From positions 9,496 to 73,495 of IMG/VR virus record IMGVR_UViG_3300031673_000022: DNA of 64,000 nucleotides. One strand, 5' to 3'. Positions 9,276-61,621 of this stretch are shown here, piece after piece; position 1 is the stretch's first letter; each line of letters starts with the position of its first letter. A model generated the notes under the pieces. That model did not search any database, was not told where the DNA came from, and saw only the letters and a program-made list of their open reading frames with translations. The DNA is from a virus. A program made the position numbers and the translations under genes.

Positions 9276-10196
9276 CTACTTGGACGTCTTGACGAAAGGG
9301 CGAGCAGACCCCGAGACACGAGCCGAGCCTGTGACCGTCGAGATCGGCTTGATGGGCTCCTCACCCGGAGGCGGACGGTTGTCAGTGACCGGGAGGGTCG
9401 AGGACGGCGAGATGATCTCGGTCATCTTCGGGTTACCCGGATAGACGAGCGCGTGGTAGCGCCGCATTACGTCGTCGGTCTCCTTCATCGCTGCCGGGCT
9501 CTTCTCGACCACGTATGTGATCGCTGCCGGGTCCACGGTGAAGGTGCCGCCGCCGCCGAGGCTCGTGATCTTCACGCCGGCTGCGCCGGAAGTGCTGACC
9601 TTGCCACGGTGAATCTGGCCGTTGTGGTAGAAGTCCACCACGTCGCCAAGGTCCACGCTCGCGAAGCCGCCTGAGACCACCGGGATGGCCGCCGCTGACG
9701 CCAGTGTCACATGCTTGCGACCCGAAGCGCCGCCACGAAGGGCATCGCGACGAACGCTGAGCATCTCCTCGATCGAGGTCGACTCCTTGCGGACGATGTA
9801 GTCCGGGCCGTCCTCGGCAGAGACCACTTCCCAAAGCTGGTTACCAGCGTCGAGGAACTGGCCCATGCCTGCCTTGAGCATGGTTGTGGACGCGCTGAGC
9901 GGCTGCCGGAGTCGCTTCTGCTCGACCACAAAAGTGAGAAAGTGTCCGTCGGGGTAAACCGACGTGGTGTCTGCACGCGCCTGGACGTTGCCACCGAAGG
10001 CACCCATGCGTGAGGTGAGCCAGGACTGGACATCCCAGATCGAAGGCACACCGAACAGCGTGGAGTATGTGGCCAGCACCCGAGCAGCGGTACCACTCTC
10101 GATGACTTTGACATCGTGAAGCTCCAGGTCAGAGCGAGCAACGTCACCCTTGGCCTTCAGCTTCGCCTGCATACGCTCGCGAAAGTTGTCCTTCAT
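9276..10196 (-). CDS. hypothetical protein, possibly virion/head-associated
   Basis: 306-aa ORF with a good RBS (AAGGA) and strongly biased codons. Confidence 0.6.
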   Translation of the reverse strand: MKDNFRERMQAKLKAKGDVARSDLELHDVKVIESGTAARVLATYSTLFGVPSIWDVQSWLTSRMGAFGGNVQARADTTSVYPDGHFLTFVVEQKRLRQPLSASTTMLKAGMGQFLDAGNQLWEVVSAEDGPDYIVRKESTSIEEMLSVRRDALRGGASGRKHVTLASAAAIPVVSGGFASVDLGDVVDFYHNGQIHRGKVSTSGAAGVKITSLGGGGTFTVDPAAITYVVEKSPAAMKETDDVMRRYHALVYPGNPKMTEIISPSSTLPVTDNRPPPGEEPIKPISTVTGSARVSGSARPFVKTSK

Positions 10197-10779: not shown

Positions 10780-11571
10780 ATGGCGTCTCAGAGGAAGAAG
10801 AAAGTAAGCGGCAGTACGAAGCAGGTCAACACCGGGTGGCTACAAGTCATCGAGTCGGAACCACCTCGCTTCTTCTGTCCTGTCACCTCCGAAAACCTCA
10901 CTGGTCCATGTCAGCTAAGAGGATGCCCTCTCTGGACATCGAACAGTAAGGTGTATTGCTGCGTTGGTGCCTTCGGCGGAATGAAAGCAGCCAACAGCGA
11001 GGAGCGGTTGCAGGCGACATCGGCGAACCAACGCGAGAAGCGCGGTACCCTCCGCTCCGCTGCTGATGGGAAGCTCAGCTTCTACGACCTCGCCCACCTA
11101 TTCGGGTTCAGCCGTCAGCGTGTGGAGGGCTTTGTGAGCTTCGGTAGAAGCATCATCGAGACTTTGGCCCCACTGTTTGCGAACATCGATGTCACGCCGG
11201 AGCGTGACCGCTCCCAGGCGGAGCGCCGTCTCGGTAGCCCTACTCTGTTTACGTACTCTGCGCCCTCGTCCCACACAGACGAGGACGGTGATGAGACCCG
11301 CGTGTGCATCTGCTGCGAGACCATCATCGAACCCGACGACAATGAGCTGGTGCTCGCAATCCTCGATCGGGCTGAGGTGGCGTGGTGCTCCCGCGAGTGC
11401 GCCCGCGAGTTCCCCATCGACGCCTACCTCGTCGCGAACCGCTACAAGCGACATTGGTCCCAGGTCGCGCTCGGCAAGGACACCATTGACGAGCGTAGCC
11501 GTGTACGCGAGATCACTGTCAAGCGCATGCAAGCCCTCAAGGAGCTTGCCGAGAAACAGGGGTATGCGTAG
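10780..11571 (+). CDS. Cys-rich Zn-binding protein with sigma region-4-like HTH
   Basis: CPV..C..CP..CC cluster, LSFYDLAHLFGFSRQRVE HTH, and a CICC..WCSREC finger. Confidence 0.55.
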   Translation: MASQRKKKVSGSTKQVNTGWLQVIESEPPRFFCPVTSENLTGPCQLRGCPLWTSNSKVYCCVGAFGGMKAANSEERLQATSANQREKRGTLRSAADGKLSFYDLAHLFGFSRQRVEGFVSFGRSIIETLAPLFANIDVTPERDRSQAERRLGSPTLFTYSAPSSHTDEDGDETRVCICCETIIEPDDNELVLAILDRAEVAWCSRECAREFPIDAYLVANRYKRHWSQVALGKDTIDERSRVREITVKRMQALKELAEKQGYA

Positions 11572-11602
11572 ATGAGCGACACGCGGCTGATCATCAACTA
11601 GA

Positions 11603-11679
11603 TGGTGCGGGAGGGAGGACTCGAACCTCCGACCTCCTGACGCAAGCGCCAGGCGAGCTACCAACTGCTCTACTCCCAC
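11603..11679 (-). tRNA. tRNA-like gene with non-canonical 8-nt anticodon loop (identity undeterminable)
   Basis: GTGGGAG/CTCCCGC acceptor stem plus ACCA, D arm GAGC-AGTTGGTA-GCTC, T arm GGAGG-TTCGAGT-CCTCC, anticodon stem CCTGG/TCAGG enclosing CGCTTGCG. Confidence 0.8.
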
Positions 11680-11682
11680 AAG

Positions 11683-11760
11683 TGGTTGGGTGAGAAGGGA
11701 TCGAACCCTCGACCTTCCGGGGGCTTAGTCCGGACGCTCTACCAACTGAGCTATCACCCA
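11683..11760 (-). tRNA. tRNA-like gene with non-canonical 9-nt anticodon loop (central AAG)
   Basis: TGGGTGA/TCACCCA acceptor stem plus ACCA, D arm GCTC-AGTTGGTA-GAGC, T arm GAGGG-TTCGATC-CCTTC, anticodon stem TCCGG/CCGGA enclosing ACTAAGCCC. Confidence 0.8.
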
Positions 11761-11830
11761 TTAGGTTCCCTTCGTGCATTACAGTGCATGAAAGGCGGGC
11801 TGATTAGGCCCGTCGATGCATTTCAGTGCA

Positions 11831-12175
11831 TCATGCCGTCGCTGACTGCGGGGAGGTTACCACGCGCGTCGTGTTTATCTCCTCCCGTTCTTCCAAGAAC
11901 TGACTGAGGAACGGCTCCGCCTTCTTCAGCCACTCACCTTGCTGCGCGTAGTCCATGTCATGGCAGTGGGTTCTGCCTCTCTTGTGCGCACGCAGCGCGT
12001 ACAAGAGCGTCAGGTACACGCAGCCAGCGCCGGACGTGCGTAGGTTCCACTCGTTGAGCACCTTGCGGAAGGCTTCCCATGCCTCGCCGTTCGGTTGCTG
12101 CAACTCCGGGTACCGCCGCTGTCGCGCTACGTCCCACTTGGCTAGATCCACAACGTAGTCTTTGCTGTCAATCAT
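11831..12175 (-). CDS. hypothetical protein
   Basis: MIDSKDY start with AAGGAG RBS, overlapping the pth2 stop. Confidence 0.6.
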   Translation of the reverse strand: MIDSKDYVVDLAKWDVARQRRYPELQQPNGEAWEAFRKVLNEWNLRTSGAGCVYLTLLYALRAHKRGRTHCHDMDYAQQGEWLKKAEPFLSQFLEEREEINTTRVVTSPQSATA

Positions 12176-12482
12176 CTTTGTCTCCTTTTGTGTAGAGCTT
12201 GAGGTTCCCCAGGGCCTTGCACCTAGGCCCTGGGGGCAAGCCGATAGCCATCGCCTGCCCGAAGTATGGCGCATCGGGCTCGACGACAAGATGATGAACA
12301 TGCCCACGAGCCGCCAGGGCCGAGGACAAGTTCATCAGAGATTGTTCGTTGGGAACCGAGAGGATGACAGCGAAGGTGCCGACCTCGGTAGGTCCGGTCT
12401 CTCCTGCTGCATGACAGATCATCGCCGCAGCCACGCCTACCGAGAGGTCGGCGCGTACGATGATTTGGTGCCTAAGGGGCAC
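12168..12482 (-). CDS. pth2: peptidyl-tRNA hydrolase type 2 family protein
   Basis: QIIVRADLSVGVAAAMICHAA..AVILSV..LVVEPD..GQAMAIGLPP..LGNLKLY matches the Pth2 fold pattern. Confidence 0.75.
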   Translation of the reverse strand: MPLRHQIIVRADLSVGVAAAMICHAAGETGPTEVGTFAVILSVPNEQSLMNLSSALAARGHVHHLVVEPDAPYFGQAMAIGLPPGPRCKALGNLKLYTKGDKDD

Positions 12483-12525
12483 GCCCGCGACGGGCTGCGT
12501 GTCAAGCTCGCTGGTTCATGAGATC

Positions 12526-12554
12526 AGTATGCGCACCAGAGCACACGCCGTCAA
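12526..12554 (-). promoter_or_regulatory. sigma70-type promoter of the pth2-tRNA operon
   Basis: TTGACG-N17-CATACT on the minus strand. Confidence 0.55.
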
Positions 12555-12560
12555 GAGATC

Positions 12561-13292
12561 CTATGAGTTGATCCGCTCTTCCCAGGTTAGGTCGACCGAA
12601 GAGAGCGCTGGCTCAGAGGTCAACGGCGTCCCCGCCGGGGTAACGGCTTGGACGCGGAACGATATGTAGTAGCTGGCCGGAACGTTTGGGATCAGGACGT
12701 CCGCTGTTCGGTGCAGGATACGGGTGGTCGTCCCTGCGTCGTCATAGATGTCCTCGACGAAGAGCGTGCCTGTGAGCCCATCGTTGATGTTCTGAGAGCG
12801 TCCATCGTAGACGGTGTACTCGACCTGCCACCGAACCGCCTTGCCGCTCTCGTTCAGGTCCCCAGTCTTCGTCCAGTGGATGTGAAACGATGGCTCAGTC
12901 ACGGCGTAGGCCGGCAACTTTAGCTGCCGGAACGCTTCGTCAACGTTCGGTGTGAACTGGAGCACCACCGTTGTGCCATAGACAACGATGCCGGGGATGG
13001 TTCCGCCTGCCCAATGTGCCGAGGTAGGCGACAGCACCGGGATGTGCTGCAAGCGCGTCACGTTCGCCACGACCTGGTTCGGCACAACCTCGGTGTTGTC
13101 GTTCTCGTCCGGGTCGTTAGCAGCGGTGATGTTGATGAGGCCGCGCGCCTGCATGTTTGGGATGTCCGACTCGTCCATCTTCGACGCCGGGAGCGTGCGG
13201 GTTACCTCCCCGTAGGCCGGGATGTTGGCCTTCACCGGGAGCGGGATGGCGAGCACGGAGCCGAGCAGGTTCTTGATTGTGTACGTTGCCAT
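12561..13292 (-). CDS. putative virion structural protein
   Basis: Beta-rich, Thr/Val/Pro-rich sequence starting MATYTIKNLL. Confidence 0.5.
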   Translation of the reverse strand: MATYTIKNLLGSVLAIPLPVKANIPAYGEVTRTLPASKMDESDIPNMQARGLINITAANDPDENDNTEVVPNQVVANVTRLQHIPVLSPTSAHWAGGTIPGIVVYGTTVVLQFTPNVDEAFRQLKLPAYAVTEPSFHIHWTKTGDLNESGKAVRWQVEYTVYDGRSQNINDGLTGTLFVEDIYDDAGTTTRILHRTADVLIPNVPASYYISFRVQAVTPAGTPLTSEPALSSVDLTWEERINS

Positions 13293-13386: not shown

Positions 13387-14337
13387 CTAGAGCCCGTGGT
13401 ATTGCTCAGTCTGCCTACCGGATGGAGCCGCCTCGACACCTAGCTTCTTCAGGGCTTCACGCAACACCAGCTTGGCGACCGAGTATGGGAAGCTCTCATG
13501 TGAATAGGAACCTAACCCAATCAGAGCCTGAAGCTGAGCCTCATAGGTGCTTTCGCGCCCAAGTGTCCTCTTGAGGATGGAGTAGATGTTCTTCTTTGGA
13601 GAATCATGCTCCTGCATAAGGCGAGATACGTACTCATCAAAAGAGATGCGCTCCTGCGGCTCTGCCAGCCACTCCACCTTAGTGACCTTCCCGGGGTTGA
13701 CCTCAGTCATTGACTCAAAGTCCTTTGGGTCGATGGAAAAGTACAAGATACCCCCTGCCGTGCCCTCCTTGAACGGAATGCCCGCCTTCTGGATTTTGCC
13801 CCCCCAGTTACTGTAGCTCTTGCTGTGTAGGTACACGCGCTCGATGGCACGAGGGGACACGAGGCCCCGGAAGAGCGCTTGTGGCTCATTCCCCCATGCC
13901 TTCCCTGAAAGATAAGCCGACGTCGAGGGGCGGAATGATTGTGGGAACTTGGACCCCCACGTCCCATCCTCTTTTCGCATCGCATCGGGAGACGGAAACG
14001 GAGGAAATAGGTTCTTACCCAAAGCCTTAAAAGATACAGCTATGCCACCAAACATCCAAGTATTCCCGAGGTTGGGCGCCACAAAGAGGCCACGATTCAC
14101 TACGACCCGCTTGCCACCGACGTTCACCCAGTGCGGGTACTTCCGCCGCGTCGGGCGTCGGGCATCGATGCCGTTTTTAATGAAGTCGGCGATATCGTCA
14201 GCGTCCGATGCGTGGAACACACGGAGAACAGTCGTAGGCTTCAGGTTCGCAACGTCTGAGCGCTGACCAGCTTCAAGTAAGGACCGTGCCTCGATGAGTG
14301 CATTCATAGCTGCTTGAATCTTGTTAACTGTGCTCAT
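13387..14337 (-). CDS. ADP-ribosyltransferase-like protein with leader-like N-terminus
   Basis: LRVFHAS..KNGIDA..GLFVAP..EPQALF..VSPRAI, after N-terminal AAMNALIEARSLLEAG. Confidence 0.55.
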   Translation of the reverse strand: MSTVNKIQAAMNALIEARSLLEAGQRSDVANLKPTTVLRVFHASDADDIADFIKNGIDARRPTRRKYPHWVNVGGKRVVVNRGLFVAPNLGNTWMFGGIAVSFKALGKNLFPPFPSPDAMRKEDGTWGSKFPQSFRPSTSAYLSGKAWGNEPQALFRGLVSPRAIERVYLHSKSYSNWGGKIQKAGIPFKEGTAGGILYFSIDPKDFESMTEVNPGKVTKVEWLAEPQERISFDEYVSRLMQEHDSPKKNIYSILKRTLGRESTYEAQLQALIGLGSYSHESFPYSVAKLVLREALKKLGVEAAPSGRQTEQYHGL

Positions 14338-17300
14338 TTGATGACCTTCTCGATCTCGATCACAGCGGCAGGTGCCGCTCGTACTTCCTTCTCGCCACCG
14401 TGGAAGGACACGCTCGGGTGGTCCATGTTCACCTTGGCTACCACGATGCCGACATTGCGGAGGTTGGCGCTCTTGAATGCCTTGGTAGAAGAAGCAAAGA
14501 AGATTGGGTCGAACCTATAGCGCGACTGCTGAAGGTACTTCTTGTAGAGCCAAAACACCATTTTCGGGTCATCTAGTTTCTTCAGAAACTCGGAGGTGGC
14601 CCGTTCCCCGTCGACGGAGTTCATGTGGTTGAGGAGCTTGTCCCATGTCCCCCGCTCAGCCTTAATGTGGCGGACAAGCTGCTCCCCTGTGTACGCGCCA
14701 TGCATGATCATGACTGCCTCTTTCAAGGCTCTGGAAATCTCTTTGGCAGCGTGCAAGTCGTGGGTGAAGGAGATGCCCTTCTCCCCTGTCCTGGTTGCTT
14801 GCGATCCTCCAAGACCGCCTTCGTTGGGGACCTTCTCCGAGAACCCATTTCGCCCGATGTCAACTGCGTTGATCGAGGCGTGGTACAGCGTCTCCACGTC
14901 TTCGTGCGTAGGGATGTCTTCGGCGCTCTTCTTGGCCTGTTCGATCTGCTTCTGGACTTCTTGCAAGTCCATCTTGCTAATAAGCGCTGGTACCTGCGTC
15001 TGGAACAGCTTGATGAGTGCGTACGCTTTCGCGTTGTCCTCTGGACGCCAAGTGAGGTCGACTTCGTCTTCAAGCTCCTTCAGGACTTCGTTCAGCGACT
15101 TCGTGAGCCTGGCCGACGCCTTCATGGCTTCTTGGTGACGGTAGCTCATGCCGGAGAACTCTCGCAGTGCGGTCATCTCCACAACTTTGAAGGGCGAGAT
15201 ACTTAGCTCCTTCTCGGTCTCATCAAGAACCTTCTCGTAGTCGCTCAGAAGAAGGTCGGCTCCCTCGACGTACTTTTCCAGAGCGACCGAGACGTTGTAG
15301 TCAAGGTCGATTCCTTGGTCGGACAAGGCTTCCTTCATGCCTGACATATCGATCAGCTTGTTTAGCTTGCCAGCGGCAACCAATGCGATCTTGAACTGAG
15401 CCAGCAGGTTACGCGGGGGACGTTGAATCCGGCCACGGACCCTCGCAGCAGGCTGAGAACGATTCGTCTTTTGGAGCTTCTTCTGCCGCTCCGCTACCGA
15501 CTTCTTGTAGTGCGGCAGCGCCTTCTTCAACCCGAAGTGCAACGGGCTCGGCAGATCGTCGATGTCCGTCCAGACGTGGTCCGACGACTCCCAACCGTGC
15601 TTGGGCTCGAACTCCTCGGGAACGATGATGAGGTAGTTGTGGTACCGGAACTTGGCGTCCTTGAAGACGTACACGAGGTCAAGCTCGAAGTGACCGCGAT
15701 AGCCCGCTTCCTCAGTGACCTCTCGCCGAAGGGCGTGGCTCGGGTCTTCACCATCGTCGATGGCCCCGCCCCACACGCCCCAGGTGTTCGGCTCGTTCAC
15801 CTGCGAGCTACGCTTCTGGACGAGCACGCGACCCGTGTCCTTCGCGTAGAACAGACCGCCGGCCCCCGCGTTGCCCCAGAACTTCCCTGACTCGTCAGTG
15901 AAGATTTCTCCTCCCAAGACCTCAGCGGCCTTCAGCTCTTTACCGGCGGCGAGGTTCGCTGCCTTCTTCAGTGCCTCGCGAATCTCGCGGCTGGTCATGG
16001 CTTTCTGAAACTTGGCCCTGTCGAGCATCACGACTTTGTAGCGCTTTGAGATGCCTAGCTCGTCGAGAAGGTAGTTCTTGCTGTTTCCTTCATAGCGGTA
16101 GATGATCGTGCCTTCGGGGAGATTGAGCACGCCCTTTTTGGTCCGCCATTCCGCCTCGCTTTTGAACTTCTTGCCAAAGTCGCGAAGCCCCCACTCAGCC
16201 ATCCGGTAGTAGAGCGCGTCGCTCGCGTCGCCCCGACTACGCAACTTGCTCAAGTCATAGGCGTCGATGGATTCGACACCCTTCTTCAAGATCCTTGCGA
16301 GGTCTTTGACACTCCGAACCTGCGCTCTCCCCTTTTCCAACTGCTTTGCGACCTGCTGGAGCGCGTCACTATTGAAGTACAACTCGCGCAGGAAGCCGTA
16401 CTCGCTCGACCACTTCGCCCCGTACTCCTTGCCGGAGGCAAGCTCCTTTTGGAGTGCATCAGCCGCCGCTCTATTACCCCCGCCGAAGAAGAGACTGAAC
16501 AATCTATCTGCCACAGCAAAGTGCCCTGTCGGCGTGTCCGTGTCCGCGTTGGCAATACGGTAGACAGCCTCTAGTCCCTTGCTGGCGAGGTACTCTGGCT
16601 TCTCGTATAGGACGCGCGAGACCTTGTTCGCCTCGACGAGAGCTTGGCCGGGGATCTTGAGGATGGTGTCGCCGATTGCATGGAAGTAGACCATGATGAG
16701 GCTGGAGCCGGAAACACCAGCGACCCCTTCGAGCTTCCCTTTCGCCAGTTGCTCCCAACGGTCGCTGGTCTCCGGCAACTCCGTGACCATGTAGAAGTGC
16801 TTGGGCACATCCGGGGTCGCGTATGACTTCGCGTCCAGCGCTCCCGCAGCGGCGGTGACGATCCCGTTGGCGACCAGCAAGAGGCCGCCCGACAACTCCT
16901 TATCGGTGATGCGGTCATCACCGGACAAGATCCTAGATGTGATCGGAGACTTGACGCGCATGCCTGCCGCCAGCAGCGCCCCAACCGCCTTACGAAGTTC
17001 CCCCTCGTCGATGTCGGAGTGCTGGATCGCGATGGCGCGGCCGACCTTGGTGACGTTGATGCCATGACGCTCGACGCCGCGTGTGTGGCGTTTCACCGAG
17101 CCGTGGCGCGAAAGCGGGATGCCAGCTTTCCGTAGAACCCCCATCACTCCCTGGACGCTAAGAGGACCTGCCGCTAGAAGCTCCTGAGCCGCGCTCAGAG
17201 CGACGGAAGCGACTACTGCCTGCCCCTTCAGGGTGAGCGTGTACTTCCCGCCACGCGACGACACAGCGCCCAGGAACAGCAACCGCGTCAGGTACGCCCG

Positions 17301-17417
17301 GATCGCCGTCTGCGACTGCCCTGTCCACTTGCGGATCCCCACGATACTCATCGGCTGACGCTTGAGCGTCCGCAGGATGTCTACAAGAGCAGGCTGAGTG
17401 ATTTCAGAAGTCGCCAT
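14334..17417 (-). CDS. approx. 1030-aa polyprotein: N-terminal wHTH, Nudix hydrolase and C-terminal ART-like domain
   Basis: Nudix box GGAIDDGEDPSHALRREVTEEAG, ART-like LYHAS..GISFT..EKEV, and HTH-like N-terminus IRKWTGQSQTAIRAYLTRL. Confidence 0.75.
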   Translation of the reverse strand: MATSEITQPALVDILRTLKRQPMSIVGIRKWTGQSQTAIRAYLTRLLFLGAVSSRGGKYTLTLKGQAVVASVALSAAQELLAAGPLSVQGVMGVLRKAGIPLSRHGSVKRHTRGVERHGINVTKVGRAIAIQHSDIDEGELRKAVGALLAAGMRVKSPITSRILSGDDRITDKELSGGLLLVANGIVTAAAGALDAKSYATPDVPKHFYMVTELPETSDRWEQLAKGKLEGVAGVSGSSLIMVYFHAIGDTILKIPGQALVEANKVSRVLYEKPEYLASKGLEAVYRIANADTDTPTGHFAVADRLFSLFFGGGNRAAADALQKELASGKEYGAKWSSEYGFLRELYFNSDALQQVAKQLEKGRAQVRSVKDLARILKKGVESIDAYDLSKLRSRGDASDALYYRMAEWGLRDFGKKFKSEAEWRTKKGVLNLPEGTIIYRYEGNSKNYLLDELGISKRYKVVMLDRAKFQKAMTSREIREALKKAANLAAGKELKAAEVLGGEIFTDESGKFWGNAGAGGLFYAKDTGRVLVQKRSSQVNEPNTWGVWGGAIDDGEDPSHALRREVTEEAGYRGHFELDLVYVFKDAKFRYHNYLIIVPEEFEPKHGWESSDHVWTDIDDLPSPLHFGLKKALPHYKKSVAERQKKLQKTNRSQPAARVRGRIQRPPRNLLAQFKIALVAAGKLNKLIDMSGMKEALSDQGIDLDYNVSVALEKYVEGADLLLSDYEKVLDETEKELSISPFKVVEMTALREFSGMSYRHQEAMKASARLTKSLNEVLKELEDEVDLTWRPEDNAKAYALIKLFQTQVPALISKMDLQEVQKQIEQAKKSAEDIPTHEDVETLYHASINAVDIGRNGFSEKVPNEGGLGGSQATRTGEKGISFTHDLHAAKEISRALKEAVMIMHGAYTGEQLVRHIKAERGTWDKLLNHMNSVDGERATSEFLKKLDDPKMVFWLYKKYLQQSRYRFDPIFFASSTKAFKSANLRNVGIVVAKVNMDHPSVSFHGGEKEVRAAPAAVIEIEKVIK

Positions 17418-17431
17418 TAAGTACACCCACA

Positions 17432-18745
17432 CTACACCAAGTTCAAATAAATCAATGTATCGGTGAGGGTGAAACCAACATTGACACCAGGTCCTCGGAA
17501 CTGTGTGGGGTCGTAGATGTTCGGAGACCCTGCCCCGACGCCACTTGAATACACCTTGTAGGTGTACTGGTTCATGCCGTACTTGCCCATGAGGCGATTG
17601 GCAACATGCGCAATCGGCGTAGCCTGGCGGATGATGTCGCGCTTCGCGCTAGGCCATGCACCGGGGTCAGTACCACGCAAGTCCTCCAGCAGCTTAGAGG
17701 CAATAGTGTCATAGACACCCTGCTGGTCGATGTCGAGTGTAACCGATTGCCCGGAAAACGAGAACTGTAGTTCTCCAGCCAGGAGTTGCTGAGCGTGCAT
17801 AGCCCAGAGGGCAGCAGCCTCGATGAGGAACCGGGTAGTGGTCGAGGCGTAGGGGAAGTTCAACAGCGACCAGTCGGAGGCCGGGGTTGTGCCGTTGAGA
17901 ATTCCCAAGCCGCGCTGGAAATACTCGAAGAGGTCCGAGTCCGGGTACGACTGGATTGCTCCTTGTCGCTTCTGCAACTTGTCGATGAGGACGCGGAGCG
18001 ACGGACCTAGTGACCAGAAGACGGAGGGCGGGACAAAGATGCGCTGTACCGTCGTCTCGGTGGGGCTCGTGATTGTCTGCCGGTAGTTCCAGACAACCTG
18101 GATCTCTCCGAAGTCGGTGAGGGCCGGGGTATCGAAGATGTACGCGAAGAGGTTCTGCTCCTCGACCTCGACGATGGTTCCGCCCGCCAGGGAACCTGTG
18201 AACAGTGCCGTGTCCGAGGGGCAGGGGTTCGTCAACGACGACGACATGAACCCCTGGATCGAGATTTCGTCAGGACGACGAGGCAGCCGAAGCACAACGC
18301 GCTCCGAGTTTCCTGCGTAGACCATGTAAGACTCGGCCCGAACGTCATCGAGCGTGTCAGGTGTCCGCAGTTCGATGACATCGAAGGGCAGCGTCTGCTG
18401 AAGCTGCCTTGCCGTTTGCGCCACCATGTTCCAAACGATGCGCCACTTGTTCGACTGCGTGGACAGTGGAGCATCTTGCGGAACCGCCCATGAGGCTGTC
18501 CAGCGTCCTGGCTGCGAGCCGGGGGTACCCACGCCGGAGTTCACCTGGACACCGGAAGGGTCCACGATGGTGTACGAAGGCGACTCCGCCGGGTTAGCAG
18601 GCACAGCCGGGGTCGTGTTGTTGGGCGCGTCGTCGAAGAAGTCGGCCTCGAACACAACGCCAATTCCTCGCGCGTGTTGCGCCAGGTTAGGAGCAATTAC
18701 TTGGTTGGTGGTACCACCGCCGGTTGCGTTCGTAGGGAAGGCCAT
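17432..18745 (-). CDS. putative head-tail connector/neck protein with Ig-like N-terminal domains
   Basis: Beta-rich N-terminus, then LRVLIDK..SDLFEYF..LLAGELQFSFSGQSVTLD, resembling myophage neck proteins. Confidence 0.45.
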   Translation of the reverse strand: MAFPTNATGGGTTNQVIAPNLAQHARGIGVVFEADFFDDAPNNTTPAVPANPAESPSYTIVDPSGVQVNSGVGTPGSQPGRWTASWAVPQDAPLSTQSNKWRIVWNMVAQTARQLQQTLPFDVIELRTPDTLDDVRAESYMVYAGNSERVVLRLPRRPDEISIQGFMSSSLTNPCPSDTALFTGSLAGGTIVEVEEQNLFAYIFDTPALTDFGEIQVVWNYRQTITSPTETTVQRIFVPPSVFWSLGPSLRVLIDKLQKRQGAIQSYPDSDLFEYFQRGLGILNGTTPASDWSLLNFPYASTTTRFLIEAAALWAMHAQQLLAGELQFSFSGQSVTLDIDQQGVYDTIASKLLEDLRGTDPGAWPSAKRDIIRQATPIAHVANRLMGKYGMNQYTYKVYSSGVGAGSPNIYDPTQFRGPGVNVGFTLTDTLIYLNLV

Positions 18746-18826
18746 GTCGTTCCTCGCTGATTCAGGATGCCGAGTTGGCAACCTATGAGGAGAGGAACCA
18801 CCCCACTCTCGGGAGAACCCCATCTA

Positions 18827-35128: not shown

Positions 35129-37819
35129 CTACTTGGTTTTGACGGTCCACTTGGTGACCTTTTTTGTGCTGCTTTTCTTAGCAGACTTCTTCTTGGTGGT
35201 CTTCTTCTTCTTGCTCTTGTCCTTTGCCTTCTTGCGGGCAGCACCGAGGAGAGCGGGAGTCTCTTCATCTTCGGGAGCGCTGTCCTCTTCGGGCGTGCTG
35301 TCCTCGGCAGTCTCCTCGGATGCCTCTGAGGCTTCCTCAGATGCCTCGTCGTCCTCGTAGAGTTCATCGTCGAGGTCCTCGTCACCCGCGATGGTCTTCA
35401 CCTTCTCACGCTTGGCTCCGACCGTGGAGACGTCGCCCTCGTCGGTCACGAGGGTGTTCTTGCTCTCACGGTACTTCTTGATCGCCTCGCCGTTGATCAG
35501 CTTCGAGCGGCACATCTGGTAGATCGGTCCTTCGCGTCCCTGCTCCTGCAAGACTTGCTCGAAATGGGAACCAGACTTGAAGTCCATATCCACCGACGGA
35601 TCGAGTCCCACGATGCTCGGCAGCTTGCCGCGCTTCACGAGGTACCCAGCGAGCTTGCAGAAGTTCAGCACGTCGGAGGCGATGTCGATGCCGACACCAA
35701 GGTTCAGGTGGATCTGTACCTCTTGAAGCGGGATGAAGTTCTTGTTCTTCTGTGTCTTGAAACGCATGAGTTGGAGGCTACGACCATCCGGTGTATCCAC
35801 ACTCTTGCCGCGACCGACGCGCACGAGGTTCGTTGTGGCGAACTTCCAGGCGTTCCCGCCGGGGAGGTTCTCCGGTGCCTGGTACGGGTTACCGACGTTC
35901 GCTCGGATCTGATTCATGGCCACGATGCTCACATGCTTGTTCGAGATGAGCGTCTGGATGCGCTTCCACCCGAGCGAGTGCATCGCGGCATCACGGCCGG
36001 GCTGCTTGTTACGCGGGTCATCGACCCACACCTGCGGGAGCATCGCAGCGACGGTGTCGATGAAGATGACCGCCTGGGGAAGACCAGCGTGCTTGTCCGG
36101 CAGGCTGTCGCAGAAGTTGTAGATGAAGTCGTACCCAATCTCACCTGTCTTGGGACGGAAGTACCGGACGCGGCTGTAGTTGACACCGATCCCGGGCTGC
36201 TCGGTGTACTTGCGGTCCGTGGTGCCCTCGTAGTCGAGGATGGCCACGGGGATACCCAAGCCAGTCAAGTAGGCAGCGGACGTATAGCCCAAGGTGCTGT
36301 TGTGCGTGACGAACCCGTTCGCGATGAAGGAGTGGGTCTCCGGCATCTCCACGTCGAACACGGGCTGCTCACCAGCGTCTTCGACGCCCTCGACCTGGTC
36401 GTAGAAGTAGCCGGAGGACTCGATCTCTTGTAGGCGTGCTCGGAGAAGCGGGTCCCAGTCACCCGTCTCGGTCGCGTCGAGAATCTCCGTGAGGCGCCGG
36501 TAGCTCAGCCTCACCTTGGGGGAGGCACCCATCACGTCGTAGAAAAGCCGGTTGTGGTCGCGTGTCGTGCCGCGGTTGGAGTCATAGAAGTCCCGCAGCA
36601 TCAGACCGAGGTTGGGGATCGAGTGACGGCGGGAGTTGGCCTCCTTGCCTTCCATGTCAGACAACGCGGCGACGTAACGCTCCTTCACCTTGGCCGAACG
36701 GGCTCCGATCTTCTCGATGAAGGAACGGTAGTCCTGGCCGGTCAGGTGCAGACGCCAGTAGTCCGTGTTCGGGTAGTTCTTAGCTACCTTGGGAGCTATA
36801 GTACCGATGATGCCGAACATCTGAAGCATTAGCTTCACATCGTGCAGAAGCTCAAAGCTCGCGGAGGTGACCTCGATGGAGGTGGGGCTGGCAAAGCTCT
36901 CACAATCGAAGTAGCCACGCAGGAAGGAGGCGGATCCTTCCTTATCGAATCCACGAACACGGGAGGGTACGCGCTTGAACCGGGCGACACCCACCTCACT
37001 TCCCCAGGTCTCGTAGAAGGCGGTTACGCCCTCCTTCGAGTTGAAGTGATAGGACGTGCTAGTGGACGTCTTGTCGTATGTCTTTGGGTCTACGCCGAGC
37101 AAAGCGGGGCCGTGAGACTTGATCACAGCCTCGACGTCGGGGTCGTCGTTGGTCATCAACAGACGCCGCTCGCCGAAGTGGGCATCAGCGACCAGAGCGC
37201 CCAGCAGGTATGCCTGCTCCTCCGCGACCTGCTCCGGACCGAACGACGGTGCCGTGGAGCGCAGGAGATAGTCACCGGGGCGCAGAGCGGCAGTTGTTCG
37301 CCACACCCAGTTACCGCCGTCGGACATGACGAGGTGCGGGTGGTTGGCTGTGGACTCGATCCGACCACCGCTAGAGGTCATGATGCGAGTAACGGGCTTC
37401 CGTCCGTTCATGAACAGACGGGCGCTGCGCTCAGCGTGCCCATGCCTGTTGATGAGAGGCATGCCGAACTCGACAACCTTGTTCGTACAGACTGCCTCGT
37501 GGTCGGCTCGCTTGAACACCTCTTCAAGCGTCAGTAGCCCCAGTCCGGTGTGGATCATGCTTGATTTTACAAGGCATTTCCCTGAGTGCTCAGGACCGTA
37601 GAATTGGATGACCTGACCACCGTAGTAGCCGCCACCCAACACGAGGTCGAGCCCGAGGCAGCCGGTGGAGAGGAAGTCCTCTGACCTCTTGACCTCAAGC
37701 TCGATCGACTTGAGTTCACCCTCCTTCTCCAGCTTGCCCATGAGAGCAAATACGTCGGCGTTACCAAGCGCCTTGTTGTCGGGGGAAGGCTTGATCTTGG
37801 CTTTGGCTTTCTTAGCCAT
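35129..37819 (-). CDS. recA: RecA/UvsX recombinase containing an intein
   Basis: STGCLGLDLVLGGG..GPEHSGK|intein|STL, Walker B VIFIDTVAA, MNQIR, PGGNAWKF. Confidence 0.92.
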   Translation of the reverse strand: MAKKAKAKIKPSPDNKALGNADVFALMGKLEKEGELKSIELEVKRSEDFLSTGCLGLDLVLGGGYYGGQVIQFYGPEHSGKCLVKSSMIHTGLGLLTLEEVFKRADHEAVCTNKVVEFGMPLINRHGHAERSARLFMNGRKPVTRIMTSSGGRIESTANHPHLVMSDGGNWVWRTTAALRPGDYLLRSTAPSFGPEQVAEEQAYLLGALVADAHFGERRLLMTNDDPDVEAVIKSHGPALLGVDPKTYDKTSTSTSYHFNSKEGVTAFYETWGSEVGVARFKRVPSRVRGFDKEGSASFLRGYFDCESFASPTSIEVTSASFELLHDVKLMLQMFGIIGTIAPKVAKNYPNTDYWRLHLTGQDYRSFIEKIGARSAKVKERYVAALSDMEGKEANSRRHSIPNLGLMLRDFYDSNRGTTRDHNRLFYDVMGASPKVRLSYRRLTEILDATETGDWDPLLRARLQEIESSGYFYDQVEGVEDAGEQPVFDVEMPETHSFIANGFVTHNSTLGYTSAAYLTGLGIPVAILDYEGTTDRKYTEQPGIGVNYSRVRYFRPKTGEIGYDFIYNFCDSLPDKHAGLPQAVIFIDTVAAMLPQVWVDDPRNKQPGRDAAMHSLGWKRIQTLISNKHVSIVAMNQIRANVGNPYQAPENLPGGNAWKFATTNLVRVGRGKSVDTPDGRSLQLMRFKTQKNKNFIPLQEVQIHLNLGVGIDIASDVLNFCKLAGYLVKRGKLPSIVGLDPSVDMDFKSGSHFEQVLQEQGREGPIYQMCRSKLINGEAIKKYRESKNTLVTDEGDVSTVGAKREKVKTIAGDEDLDDELYEDDEASEEASEASEETAEDSTPEEDSAPEDEETPALLGAARKKAKDKSKKKKTTKKKSAKKSSTKKVTKWTVKTK
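36299..37576 (-). mobile_element. 426-aa intein with LAGLIDADG homing endonuclease inserted in the RecA P-loop
   Basis: Begins CLVKSS, block B TANHP, endonuclease motifs LLGALVADA and FLRGYFDCES, ends VFDVEM..FIANGFVTHN before Ser. Confidence 0.92.
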
Positions 37820-59880: not shown

Positions 59881-61621
59881 CAGGTTTGGGGCTTGTCCCA
59901 GGTGAGAGGTAGGTGGGCCGTCGCCCGTGTTAGCGCCGCTGTCCGCAGCAACCGACAATCGTGCGACCATTCAACTATCTGCGCCATGTCGGCGTCGGCT
60001 TCCAGCGAGAAGACCGCCTGCTCGACGACGAGATTACAATCGGGGCTCGCGGCGATCAGCAGCCAGAGGAGTTCATCGTCGTCGGCGAACAGCAGGGTCT
60101 CTGCTGTGTACGTGTACGTCACAAAGACTCCTGGGCTTCGCTAGCCCACCGGGACAAATGTGCTTCGTACCCCTCAGCCCACCGAGACAACGCCATCAAC
60201 GTCAACTCCACCCCACCCGGACCAGGAGGGAGGGAGGCCAGGTAGACAAGAGCTTCTTCCTCGGTCGCGAAGCGGTTGTTCGTGTGCTGCTTATCGGGGC
60301 TCATCACCACCCACACCTCACCCCCCGATGTCAGCATCGGGAAGGCGTAGTTACCCGAGGGGAGGTGCCGGTGGAGGACACGAGCGCCCGACCAAGTTGT
60401 GTAGGTCACAAGGTCATCCATCAGTGCCTCCTTGTCCCAGTGCCAGTGCGCGCATGTCCTCGACGTACTCCCGAACCGCTTCCTCGATCACAGGTAGCTT
60501 GTCCTCTTCGTCAGCGCCCAGGATGAAGAAGATGGCGGACCCGAAGTGCCCATCGTACTCCGGGTCGAGGGCTCCCAGGTCCATCAGGATCTCATGCAGG
60601 GGCTCGTACCTACTGTCGCCTTTCATCACGAGGAGAAAGTCCGCATCCGAAAGCGGTAGCTCGTAGGTGCGCGCCGTGACCACCGCCTTGCCAAAGGTCG
60701 CGGTCATGCTGCTTCCTCGTCAGGTTCCTCAGGATCAGCGTAAGCGGATTCGATCCGCTCCCCGGTGTGGTCGCAGTAGAGGTCAGGGTCCTCCCAGTTC
60801 GCGTCATGCGCCACCACGTACCAGCCCTTGTCATCCGGGTCACAGCAGGCGTCGAGGTTCTCCTCCACAGCCTCAGCACTCAAAACACCGCCGTCAGCAG
60901 TGACATAGAACAGCGGGTAGCAGCCGACCGAGCTGTACTTCACTACCTTGGGGATCGGTGAAGGGTCAGCCGCATATGGGTTCGTGTTGCGTACGTCCAT
61001 CATCACGATGGCAGGGTTACGCGGGTGTAGATAGCTCATTGGGATACCTTTGTGAGAGTCATGATGCCGGAGTCCGCCGCTACAGGTGACCCAGACGGGG
61101 CCTCGACCCAGCCCACGTAGCTCTGCGTGTACGGGGTGATCCACAGATGCGCATCGCTACCATCCGCAATGAGGAGATTGAAGCTCACCCTCTCGTGCTT
61201 GTTGAGGCTCGTGGGGTGGTCGCGACGCTCGCCGACGACGAACACACGGCGGTCATGGATCCCAACGCCGCTCGTGACCAGCATCCCCGTCTTCACATCC
61301 TCGAAATTAAGCGTCGACATCTCAATCCACCTTCCCGATGTAGAGCGCAGGGTCCAGTCCCCGCGACTTCAGAGCGCGCTTGATCTTCGCCGCACACGAC
61401 GAGCCTACCTGGAAACAGCCCTGAGAATCAGGGGTGTCACTGTCCAGGGGCACGAAACTACGGTCCGTGGTCATGTGCATGTAGACAGCCTTGTCCACCT
61501 GCTTCTCACTCATCCCGCGACGGCAGCAGATGCACTTCTCGTCGTTGCCACGACCCTGACCAGAACAGTCAGCGATCCCAGCCTCCGAAACCAGCGCATC
61601 CATGTGTACCCGGTCCTGCAT
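59880..61621 (-). CDS. operon of six small hypothetical early genes (59880-60122, 60119-60421, 60414-60707, 60704-61039, 61036-61320, 61322-61621)
   Basis: Tightly coupled ORFs between the promoter at 61655-61682 and the terminator at 59853. Confidence 0.55.

Follow-up and report, generated by a model that had tools for sequence, protein, structure and literature searches.

Phage tRNA-like genes with non-canonical anticodon arms in a conserved cassette with a divergent PTH2-fold gene

The 64,000-nt stretch of viral DNA analysed here (the window; positions 9,496 to 73,495 of IMG/VR record IMGVR_UViG_3300031673_000022) contains two adjacent tRNA-like genes, A and B, located downstream of a gene for a divergent PTH2-fold protein. 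These tRNA-shaped RNAs belong to a conserved phage cassette in which a gene for a divergent PTH2-fold esterase is accompanied by one to five tRNA-like genes. Sequence comparisons indicate that the acceptor, D and T arms of the RNAs evolve under tRNA constraints and that their anticodon arms are non-canonical and stay so. The cassette is defined here as a PTH2-like gene together with at least one tRNA-like gene that has a non-canonical anticodon arm, in a span of ~1.2 kb, which is the arrangement found at the window locus. The role considered most likely, and proposed tentatively, is that tRNA mimics and a PTH2-like esterase act together against a host attack on tRNA. The literature searched, supplements aside, holds no account of a cassette of enlarged-loop or tetraloop-capped tRNA-like genes with PTH2 in phages.

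Sequence and fold of the two tRNA-like genes

Gene A is the upstream and gene B the downstream member of the pair. They share the strand of the PTH2-like gene, begin 408 and 489 nt downstream of it and are separated by a spacer of 3 nt (11680-11682). Both match the Rfam tRNA family (RF00005; 55.3 bits for A and 52.4 bits for B, gathering score 29), and ARAGORN assigns scores of 112 and 116 to the two genes. In each, a 7-bp acceptor stem is accompanied by D and T arms of standard form, and the variable loop is AGGUC. The Rfam alignment places nine bases in the anticodon loop of A and eight in that of B, where the model has seven; in the canonical register the loops read ACUAAGCCC (A, 9 nt) and CGCUUGCG (B, 8 nt). 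The minimum free energy structure generated by RNAfold is a cloverleaf for both genes, with an anticodon arm of 5 bp and a 9-nt loop in A and of 7 bp and a CUUG tetraloop in B (83% of the ensemble, z -2.25). A preliminary description, made from the letters of this DNA alone, had reported two tRNA-like genes with intact arms, encoded CCA ends and 8- and 9-nt loops lying 3 nt apart, and the present analysis confirms these features.

Because its 8-nt loop closes into a 7-bp stem capped by CUUG, gene B has no anticodon loop. ARAGORN reports it as tRNA-??? with an 8-nt loop and a four-base 'anticodon', cttg; position 33 is G, hence there is no U33, and no usable anticodon is present. The self-complementary loop without U33 that was first noted for B is therefore borne out. 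For gene A, the one solution without a mismatch in a register scan combines a 9-nt loop with a perfect stem of 5 bp. The ARAGORN label of A, Leu(aag), arises because the program slides the stem by one base, at the cost of an A.C mismatch and a 2-nt spacer, and this 7-nt register puts C at position 37. The CUA of the loop lies one base from the stem, outside positions 34-36. U33 and purine 37 do not occur together in either loop in any register, and neither gene combines the 7-nt loop, U33 and purine 37 that are taken to mark a decoder.

The body of A is nearest to cellular tRNA-Lys(UUU) and tRNA-His (78-82% identity) and that of B to cellular Pro(UGG) (74-75% identity), matches that are read here as fixing no identity for either gene. 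The stretch with the two genes is found without differences in contigs of three soil-metagenome runs, two of which may be the source of this DNA, and most of the short pieces recovered with it come from other organisms, being unrelated tRNAs matched through the T arm. Assembly error is unlikely, because the same stretch occurs in three runs and like loop anomalies recur across many independent assemblies. One of the runs, X3, holds a contig identical over both tRNA-like genes and also contigs of a diverged strain that cover the flanking genes, with 27 differences in 154 nt (11400-11553) and 20 in 104 nt (12556-12659).

Recurrence, linkage and classes of the tRNA-like genes

An alignment-based scan for relatives of the PTH2-like protein yields 37 metagenome loci and 8 IMG/VR loci. 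At most of them, one to five tRNA genes, nearly all abnormal, start 16-650 nt downstream on the same strand. With dereplication and the loci added later, the set comprises 38 non-redundant relatives, of which 34 are informative in that their downstream sequence extends for 400 nt or more. Counted from the PTH2-like gene, 28 of these 34 have one or more non-canonical tRNAs in the interval from -200 to +1200 nt. A tRNA is scored as canonical, using the ARAGORN structure and counting unique sequences, when it has a 7-nt loop, U33, purine 37, no more than 1 nt of spacer and a formed closing pair. By this definition 5 of 55 tRNAs adjacent to a PTH2-like gene are canonical, compared with 71 of 84 located elsewhere in the same phage records (Fisher p = 9e-20). 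The loop length given by ARAGORN differs from 7 in 16 of the 55 adjacent tRNAs and in none of the 84 others.

Two phages with large tRNA sets show the same pattern within a single genome. A complete 275-kb IMG/VR phage has 32 Rfam tRNA matches, 31 of which are clustered ~12 kb away from the PTH2-like gene, and the 32nd, with the lowest score (44.7 bits), is a 9-nt-loop tRNA adjoining that gene. A stem fitted by ARAGORN one base out of place serves as the signature of the 9-nt-loop class, and it appears in 0 of 35 ARAGORN calls in the main cluster of this phage. In the 25-kb tRNA region of Myxococcus phage Mx1 the signature marks one of 37 ARAGORN calls, namely the one near the PTH2-like gene. 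The Mx1 order is the PTH2-like gene, annotated 'peptidyl-tRNA hydrolase', then a hypothetical gene and then a tRNA-like gene (OR576727.2 ~60058-60132; L031:19059-19133) that is absent from the GenBank annotation and has a perfect 5-bp stem, the 9-nt loop AGUAAUGAC and a Rfam tRNA score of 31.7 bits. As a separate matter, several tRNA-Leu genes (UAA, CAA, GAG, CAG) of Mx1 (L031) and of the 275-kb phage (L107) measure just 72-77 nt; bacterial tRNA-Leu has a long arm, and the variable loop of these phage genes is short.

A second scan of IMG/VR with a wider profile adds four new loci, of which three are non-redundant. In all four, abnormal tRNAs follow downstream at a distance of 60-565 nt; among them are an arm capped by GAAA, two additional 9-nt loops and another copy of AGUAAUGAC. 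When the search is reversed, a pattern restricted to the AGUAAUGAC tRNA retrieves 20 stretches on 19 IMG/VR contigs, one of which was already known and among which near-identical copies were kept. A profile search of their six-frame translations locates a PTH2-like open reading frame (ORF) on the same strand, at a distance of up to ~400 nt, in 17 of the 20 stretches, and the tRNA sits on either side of it. The stretches without such an ORF are L142, L149 and L148, the last of which is cut 6 nt before the match. At L134, L139, L146, L147 and L150, directly after the PTH2-like gene, two AGUAAUGAC tRNAs flank a tRNA with a 6-nt loop (UUUUAA or UCUUAA). Genomic linkage of the PTH2-like gene with odd tRNAs is thus shown in both directions, and the tie to a Pth2-like gene proposed in the preliminary description extends to a conserved association with tRNAs whose anticodon arms are non-canonical. 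The PTH2-like protein is the sole protein conserved across the cassette. No other ORF family occurs in more than 6 of the 47 loci compared (not dereplicated), and the next two ORF clusters after the PTH2-like one are artefacts of antisense ORFs over the same gene.

One further gene was recorded in the neighbourhood of a PTH2-like gene. On a 55-kb metagenome contig, a full tmRNA gene (L037:7438-7829, minus strand; Rfam 123.5 bits) lies ~1.1 kb away, where it is either a functional neighbour or the mark of a prophage integrated at ssrA.

The cassette RNAs are sorted into three classes by their anticodon arms and bodies. RNAs of class I resemble tRNA-Arg(UCU) or tRNA-Lys(UUU) in their bodies and combine a short D loop with anticodon loops of 5-9 nt. 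In class II, the B type, a hyperstable cap closes the anticodon arm into a hairpin; the cap is G(CUUG)C in the window and at L045, L050, L051 and L054, UUCG and GCAA at L073 and GAAA at L118. Tetraloop-capped arms amount to 8 RNAs from 7 non-redundant loci (CUUG in five, UUCG in one and GNRA in two), and the class also takes in two 85-nt RNAs with arms of 8-11 bp. Class III, the A type, has 9-nt loops that form two sequence groups: one reads NNNGUAGAN (15 sequences, with AUAGA in one) and the other NNUAAKNNN (nine sequences, including ACUAAGCCC of the window). Neither tRNA B nor the tRNA A loop is matched in exact-pattern scans of IMG/VR, so the exact loop ACUAAGCCC is unique so far.

The A type was aligned with MAFFT using A and 23 further tRNAs. 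In these 24 sequences the anticodon arm is free of gaps and the loop of indels, so that the enlarged loop, which is always 9 nt, is conserved in related phages as the preliminary description had anticipated. Of the cells at paired positions, 94% pair, and changes on both sides are seen in 21 of 22 pairs; 0 of 500 shuffles reach the values observed, and partner columns that have been slid pair in 34-45%. Five pairs of the anticodon stem covary, and the loop is taken to be truly 9 nt long because the potential sixth pair is unpaired in 18 of 24 sequences. The elbow bases (GG in the D loop and GTTC.A..C in the T loop) are invariant. The loop AGUAAUGAC is identical in five tRNAs that are otherwise 55-70% identical, and in the 9-nt class no register yields U33 and purine 37 throughout. 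Elsewhere in the cassettes, triplets are kept for A/U-rich codons (UCU, UUU, GUA, UAA, UAG and AAU), and in four T-type loops the sequence is A-CUGUAGA-A, which gives a loop of the normal 7 nt above a stem with a single mismatch. Members resembling tRNA-Tyr(GUA) have a short variable loop and carry A, G or U as the discriminator.

Three other descriptions of these RNAs were considered and rejected. An identity as bacterial tRNA-Tyr or tRNA-Leu is opposed by the short variable loops of the 'Tyr'-like RNAs and by their varying discriminators; against partial tRNA copies of the attP type stands the covariation in the two halves of each helix. The idea of a unifying 'NUA anticodon' or 'stop-codon-like loop' was dropped because the triplet stands at a different distance from the stem in each class.

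From these comparisons, the odd loops are judged to be under selection. If they were instead decaying tRNA pseudogenes or assembly errors, without function, the ARAGORN help rule that flags loops other than 7 nt as possible pseudogenes would apply to them. That account would have to accommodate four helices that are intact with compensatory changes, a 9-nt length that is fixed in 24 sequences and identical loops on diverged backbones. The canonical fraction beside the PTH2-like gene (5/55 vs 71/84), the recovery of that gene in 17 of 20 stretches by the reverse scan and the same sequence in contigs from three runs also speak against it. Decay is accordingly given a very small probability, and the comparative data largely refute it, in line with the earlier remark that damage confined to one loop in both genes is not what random decay predicts.

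The PTH2-like protein, the remaining locus and the phage

The PTH2-like protein of the window, which resembles peptidyl- or aminoacyl-tRNA hydrolases, matches Pfam PF01981 with E 1.3e-4 and 22.5 bits, just under the cut-off of 23, and it is matched by phrog_1866 (function unknown; E 1.9e-7). A profile of the 23-sequence family gives full-length matches to six solved Pth2 chains (E 7e-5 to 1e-3). The AlphaFold2 model of the protein has a pLDDT of 93.4, and the top Foldseek entries are 3erj and 1q7s (archaeal Pth2 and human Bit1; TM 0.73-0.74, probability 1.0), with all of the 12 best entries being Pth2 or Pth2-like (probability 0.99-1.0). Against the NCBIfam equivalog models for Pth2, the relatives reach 20-22 bits where the cut-offs are 82-126, and the window protein has no match. 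Together with the predicted structure, these results assign the protein to the PTH2 fold as a member of a distant subfamily and not as an orthologue of archaeal Pth2. The original designation 'Pth2' thus stands for the fold and, with the score below the Pfam cut-off, falls for orthology.

Across the family four residues, H24, E28, E46 and E68, do not vary. H24 corresponds to the His of the SHAA motif in the profile alignment, and the acid E68 stands opposite the Asp of DAGRT. The Lys of the GKGK loop and the Asp and Thr of DAGRT are presumably the catalytic residues of archaeal and human Pth2. This is a large family, with 1,425 representatives (clustered at 50% identity) when E <= 0.001 and 721 when E <= 1e-10.

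The features of the locus are collected in Table 1. The 114-aa protein encoded between the PTH2-like gene and the tRNA-like genes has no match in Pfam, PHROG, NCBIfam or PADLOC, and it has two relatives, at 57% and 49% identity. An LRAHxRG motif is weakly common to this protein and to the gene that follows the PTH2-like gene in three other loci (L034:5640-6284, L035:6285-6938 and L037:6363-6800), a comparison to which hhalign gives a probability of just 12% (E 0.0025). It is possible that, in this sub-clade, the cassette includes the gene as a second component. The 70-nt spacer before gene A holds two exact copies of the partly palindromic 14-nt motif TGCACTGWAATGCA (11775-11788 and 11817-11830, minus strand). 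With up to two mismatches allowed, TGCACTGWAATGCA has 2 matches in the whole window, compared with 0.44 expected, and 8 of 100 shuffles reach 2; a promoter, an operator or a processing signal are possibilities for the pair, which is suggestive only. Of the single promoter described earlier, the consensus match stands, and it is not evidence of function because the count is near chance (1 sigma-70-like site vs 0.6 expected in shuffles). PADLOC returns no match among the proteins scanned.

Table 1. Coordinates of features at the cassette locus, in window positions
Feature	Coordinates	Strand	Remarks and basis
tRNA-like gene B	11603..11679	(-)	77 nt, CCA encoded; ARAGORN, Rfam, RNAfold
tRNA-like gene A	11683..11760	(-)	78 nt, CCA encoded; ARAGORN, Rfam, register scan, RNAfold
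Spacer holding repeated motif	11775..11830	(-)	Between hypothetical gene and tRNA-like gene A
Hypothetical protein, 114 aa	11831..12175	(-)	ORF between PTH2-like gene and tRNA-like genes
Divergent PTH2-fold protein, 104 aa	12168..12482	(-)	Pfam, PHROG, profile, AlphaFold2, Foldseek
Sigma-70-like promoter match	12526..12554	(-)	TTGACG-17-CATACT, 9/12 positions; upstream of PTH2-like gene

The 73,495-bp phage genome has a GC content of 59.4%, and A and B are its sole tRNA genes according to ARAGORN, which also finds no tmRNA in the whole genome. Rfam reports tRNA matches only, and nothing else, for window positions 11000-13000. Few of the large proteins of the phage match a PHROG, and the phage is novel. 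The closest relatives are P0002 (68% identity) and P0010. Scans of IMG/VR with single proteins (the PTH2-like, hypothetical and 1032-aa proteins as queries) return zero close relatives of the phage, and a blastn search of INPHARED returns generic tRNA similarity only. Mx1 is the only INPHARED record that holds a relative of the PTH2-like protein (41% identity by tblastn); pairwise comparison with the Mx1 'peptidyl-tRNA hydrolase', WNM70121.1, gives 43% identity (E 2e-18). Three contigs of the genome collections bear the gene, and their bins are metagenome-assembled genomes of Polyangiaceae, Kofleriaceae and Myxococcales. The hosts are probably Myxococcota, and the window DNA is present in soil metagenomes.

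Other genes of the window were characterized in passing. The portal or head-tail connector gene (17432-18823, minus strand) has as its sole detectable phage relatives proteins 21-23% identical from Erwinia, Dickeya and Pseudomonas jumbo phages of ~260 kb, compared with 73.5 kb for the present genome. Adjoining it, a gene for a 1032-aa protein (14334-17432, minus strand) encodes a central NUDIX hydrolase domain (phrog_1198, E 4e-23, residues 521-637), the rest of the protein being unmatched. In an 896-aa protein (35129-37819, minus strand), one region matches phrog_9666 (E 2e-68) and another, of the UvsX/RecA-like recombinase kind, matches phrog_97 (E 4e-37).

Possible roles of the cassette

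In the favoured reading, which ascribes to the cassette a part in countering attacks on tRNA, the RNAs would be transcribed and would mature and fold in the manner of tRNAs, and yet would not be ordinary decoders. Such mimics would stand in for host tRNAs, either as targets or as competitors of a tRNA-directed attack by the host, and candidate attackers would be nucleases that cut the anticodon arm or toxins that act on the charged 3' end. The PTH2-like enzyme would then strip acyl or peptidyl groups off damaged, blocked or mimic tRNAs, by which tRNAs and ribosomes would be recycled. The non-decoding mimic of the preliminary description is strongly favoured for B, in which the arm is predicted to be a closed hairpin with a tetraloop cap, as it is in relatives; the interpretation offered there as a whole finds partial support. 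Supply of codons was considered and rejected as a role, given that the window phage has no canonical tRNA and that Mx1 and the 275-kb phage already have near-complete canonical sets.

Two kinds of known phage system bear on this reading; these and the other articles given by PMC number are drawn on in excerpt. Phage tRNAs can counter anticodon nucleases through changes in the loop, and tRNA-Lys(UUU), one of the two cellular tRNAs nearest to the body of A, is repeatedly described as cut by such nucleases (van den Berg et al. 2023, PMC10264068; T5 against PARIS and retron Ec78, PMC11464382, PMC11555353). Like the cassette RNAs, they are phage-encoded, altered in the anticodon loop and engaged in a conflict over tRNA; as described in those excerpts, their loops are 7-nt decoders with substitutions, whereas the cassette loops have 9, 6 or 8 nt or a tetraloop and are tied to PTH2. 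The words 'insertion', 'enlarged', 'loop size' and 'loop length' are each absent from the text of PMC10264068. The second system is the PTH2 of jumbo phages, which has been proposed to release peptides from damaged tRNAs and so to free ribosomes jammed by cleaved tRNAs (Iyer et al. 2021, PMC7824862). It shares the PTH2 fold and the phage origin; the cassette family is distant from it (~22 bits vs cut-offs of 82-126) and occurs in a 73-kb phage, and linkage to odd tRNAs is unmentioned in the excerpts of PMC7824862.

Several points weigh against the favoured reading. A passive decoy is not obviously in need of a 9-nt loop that is fixed at every base; conservation of this kind implies a specific reader, which a model of mimics leaves unnamed. 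The model names no host defence system or target either. The tight linkage in either gene order suggests a direct partnership of enzyme and RNA, which fits ribosome rescue at least equally well. Variants with charged decoys are affected by the discriminators, which vary (A, G, U) within a class and make uniform charging doubtful. Several of the neighbouring tRNAs keep plausible anticodons (UCU, UUU and GUA) and might still decode, and 6 of the 34 informative loci (L032, L034, L037, L038, L059 and L065) show no tRNA by ARAGORN or by Rfam at E <= 1. In the profile alignment of the PTH2-like protein, the Lys of GKGK falls in a gap or at Val and the Thr of DAGRT stands opposite Pro, and the hydrolase activity of the protein is putative only.

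A different possibility is that the RNAs are special decoders, with altered loops that resist anticodon nucleases or decode in an unusual way, and that the PTH2-like enzyme clears the extra drop-off of peptidyl-tRNA. The options for decoding would be rare A/U-rich codons in a high-GC host, quadruplets or quintuplets, +1 frameshifting and stop suppression. Many cassette tRNAs do have triplets for A/U-rich codons, the likely hosts are high-GC Myxococcota and the phage has 59% GC; in addition, 5 of the 55 adjacent tRNAs are fully canonical and the four T-type loops are of 7 nt. A 9-membered anticodon loop has precedent. In laboratory suppressors, enlarged loops can work on the ribosome (PMC4238358, PMC9094753), and a natural tRNA with an expanded loop from algal mitochondria, tRNA-X of Vischeria, has been proposed as a reader of the stop codon UAA, a proposal that its authors revisit with more species (PMC13449250). 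That RNA resembles the cassette RNAs in its natural enlarged anticodon loop and unclear role, and in the excerpts it is a single organellar case with no gene cassette and no hydrolase partner.

The structures themselves count against special decoding, in that B and at least 7 relatives are capped by a tetraloop and would be unable to decode, and the 9-nt class lacks a register with U33 and purine 37 throughout. Unlike bacterial tRNA-Tyr, the 'Tyr(GUA)'-like members have no long variable arm, and the discriminator differs among them. Codon use in the window phage points the same way: of 83 ORFs, 28 end in TAG, TTA makes up only 28 of 22,520 codons and the long ORFs are unbroken under code 11. 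Ordinary ORFs contain in-frame CAAG 91 times, so general quadruplet reading would be harmful. A scan for long in-frame ORF pairs split by a single stop detects ordinary adjacent genes and noise only, and no convincing in-frame interrupted genes emerge. Phages with complete canonical sets carry an odd tRNA too. Special decoding is for these reasons considered unlikely.

Two specific forms of it were set aside. A nonsense suppressor is at odds with the position of CUA outside 34-36, with TAG as an ordinary stop and with the unbroken long ORFs; a +1 frameshift suppressor is at odds with the self-paired loop of B, its missing U33 and the failure to identify interrupted genes. The frameshift or nonsense suppressors entertained in the preliminary description consequently retain little support. 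In the known +1 frameshift suppressors SufJ, SufB2 and sufD, which were selected in the laboratory, one base is inserted beside a normal anticodon. Their 8-nt loops on otherwise normal tRNAs resemble the cassette RNAs in being enlarged; in contrast, the 8-nt loop of the cassette is self-complementary and forms a tetraloop, its 9-nt loops have no consistent U33 and purine 37, and no target sites were found.

Ribosome rescue by acceptance and release offers another explanation. A charged RNA without a usable anticodon, whether capped by a tetraloop or of the 9-nt-loop kind, would enter the empty or damaged A site of a stalled ribosome, take over the nascent chain and fall off, after which the dedicated PTH2-like enzyme would hydrolyse the peptidyl-RNA and let the RNA be used again, giving a two-part system similar to tmRNA without a tag. 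The cassette would then be a self-contained device for peptide release and ribosome rescue, serving ribosomes stalled by RNA-cleaving host immunity, and a tag-less, SmpB-independent analogue of trans-translation. Since both parts would be required, this account matches the tight two-way linkage in either order, and it also accommodates the strictly kept acceptor, T and D arms beside the loss of the anticodon. A precedent is provided by tmRNA, which acts on stalled ribosomes and whose tRNA-like domain has no anticodon; the cassette RNAs differ from it in having no mRNA-like tag region and no SmpB-like partner, their partner being a PTH2-like esterase. The tmRNA gene 1.1 kb from the PTH2-like gene at L037 is a weak hint that could equally mark the integration site of a prophage. 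PTH2 itself was earlier proposed as a ribosome-rescue factor of jumbo phages (PMC7824862). On the other side, charging is putative, with varying discriminators and neither G3.U70 nor another common identity element seen, and entry into the A site independently of a codon normally needs a helper such as SmpB, none of which is conserved nearby. The conservation of the 9-nt loop is also left unexplained. Rescue in this form, and with it the view of the cassette as such a device, is regarded as rather improbable.

Other uses of a tRNA body would include a sponge or inhibitor of a host enzyme (a synthetase, a modification enzyme, the CCA-adding enzyme or RNase P), a donor of aminoacyl groups for non-ribosomal transfer and a processing signal for RNase P or RNase Z. 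The tRNA body alone is kept across all classes while the anticodon arms differ, and conservation of the loop at every base implies a specific reader, possibly a host enzyme. No transferase or further partner gene is conserved beside the cassette, and plain processing signals would need neither conserved loop sequences nor linkage to a PTH2-like gene; a small probability is assigned to this group of uses. The tRNA-like modules of bacterial and phage Y RNA (YrlA), which work with Ro60/TROVE, also mimic tRNA, and their genes lie close to those for RNA repair. A TROVE gene is located ~1.4 kb upstream of the Mx1 cassette, and no TROVE protein is among the window proteins scanned. The cassette RNAs differ from YrlA in lacking the Ro-binding helix, and their Rfam matches are to tRNA only.

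Phage tRNAs have so far been explained by codon supply or by nuclease resistance through point changes, and the recurrent class described here fits neither. Its members are easily missed, as the Mx1 copy is unannotated and others are labelled 'Ile', 'Leu' or 'Tyr' by ARAGORN through a shifted stem. Myxococcus phage Mx1 is a carrier of the cassette that can be cultivated. If the RNAs are mimics or rescue factors, they would supply tRNA engineering with natural scaffolds in the form of non-decoding tRNA bodies, and the cassette would open a new and testable chapter in the conflict between phage and host over translation.

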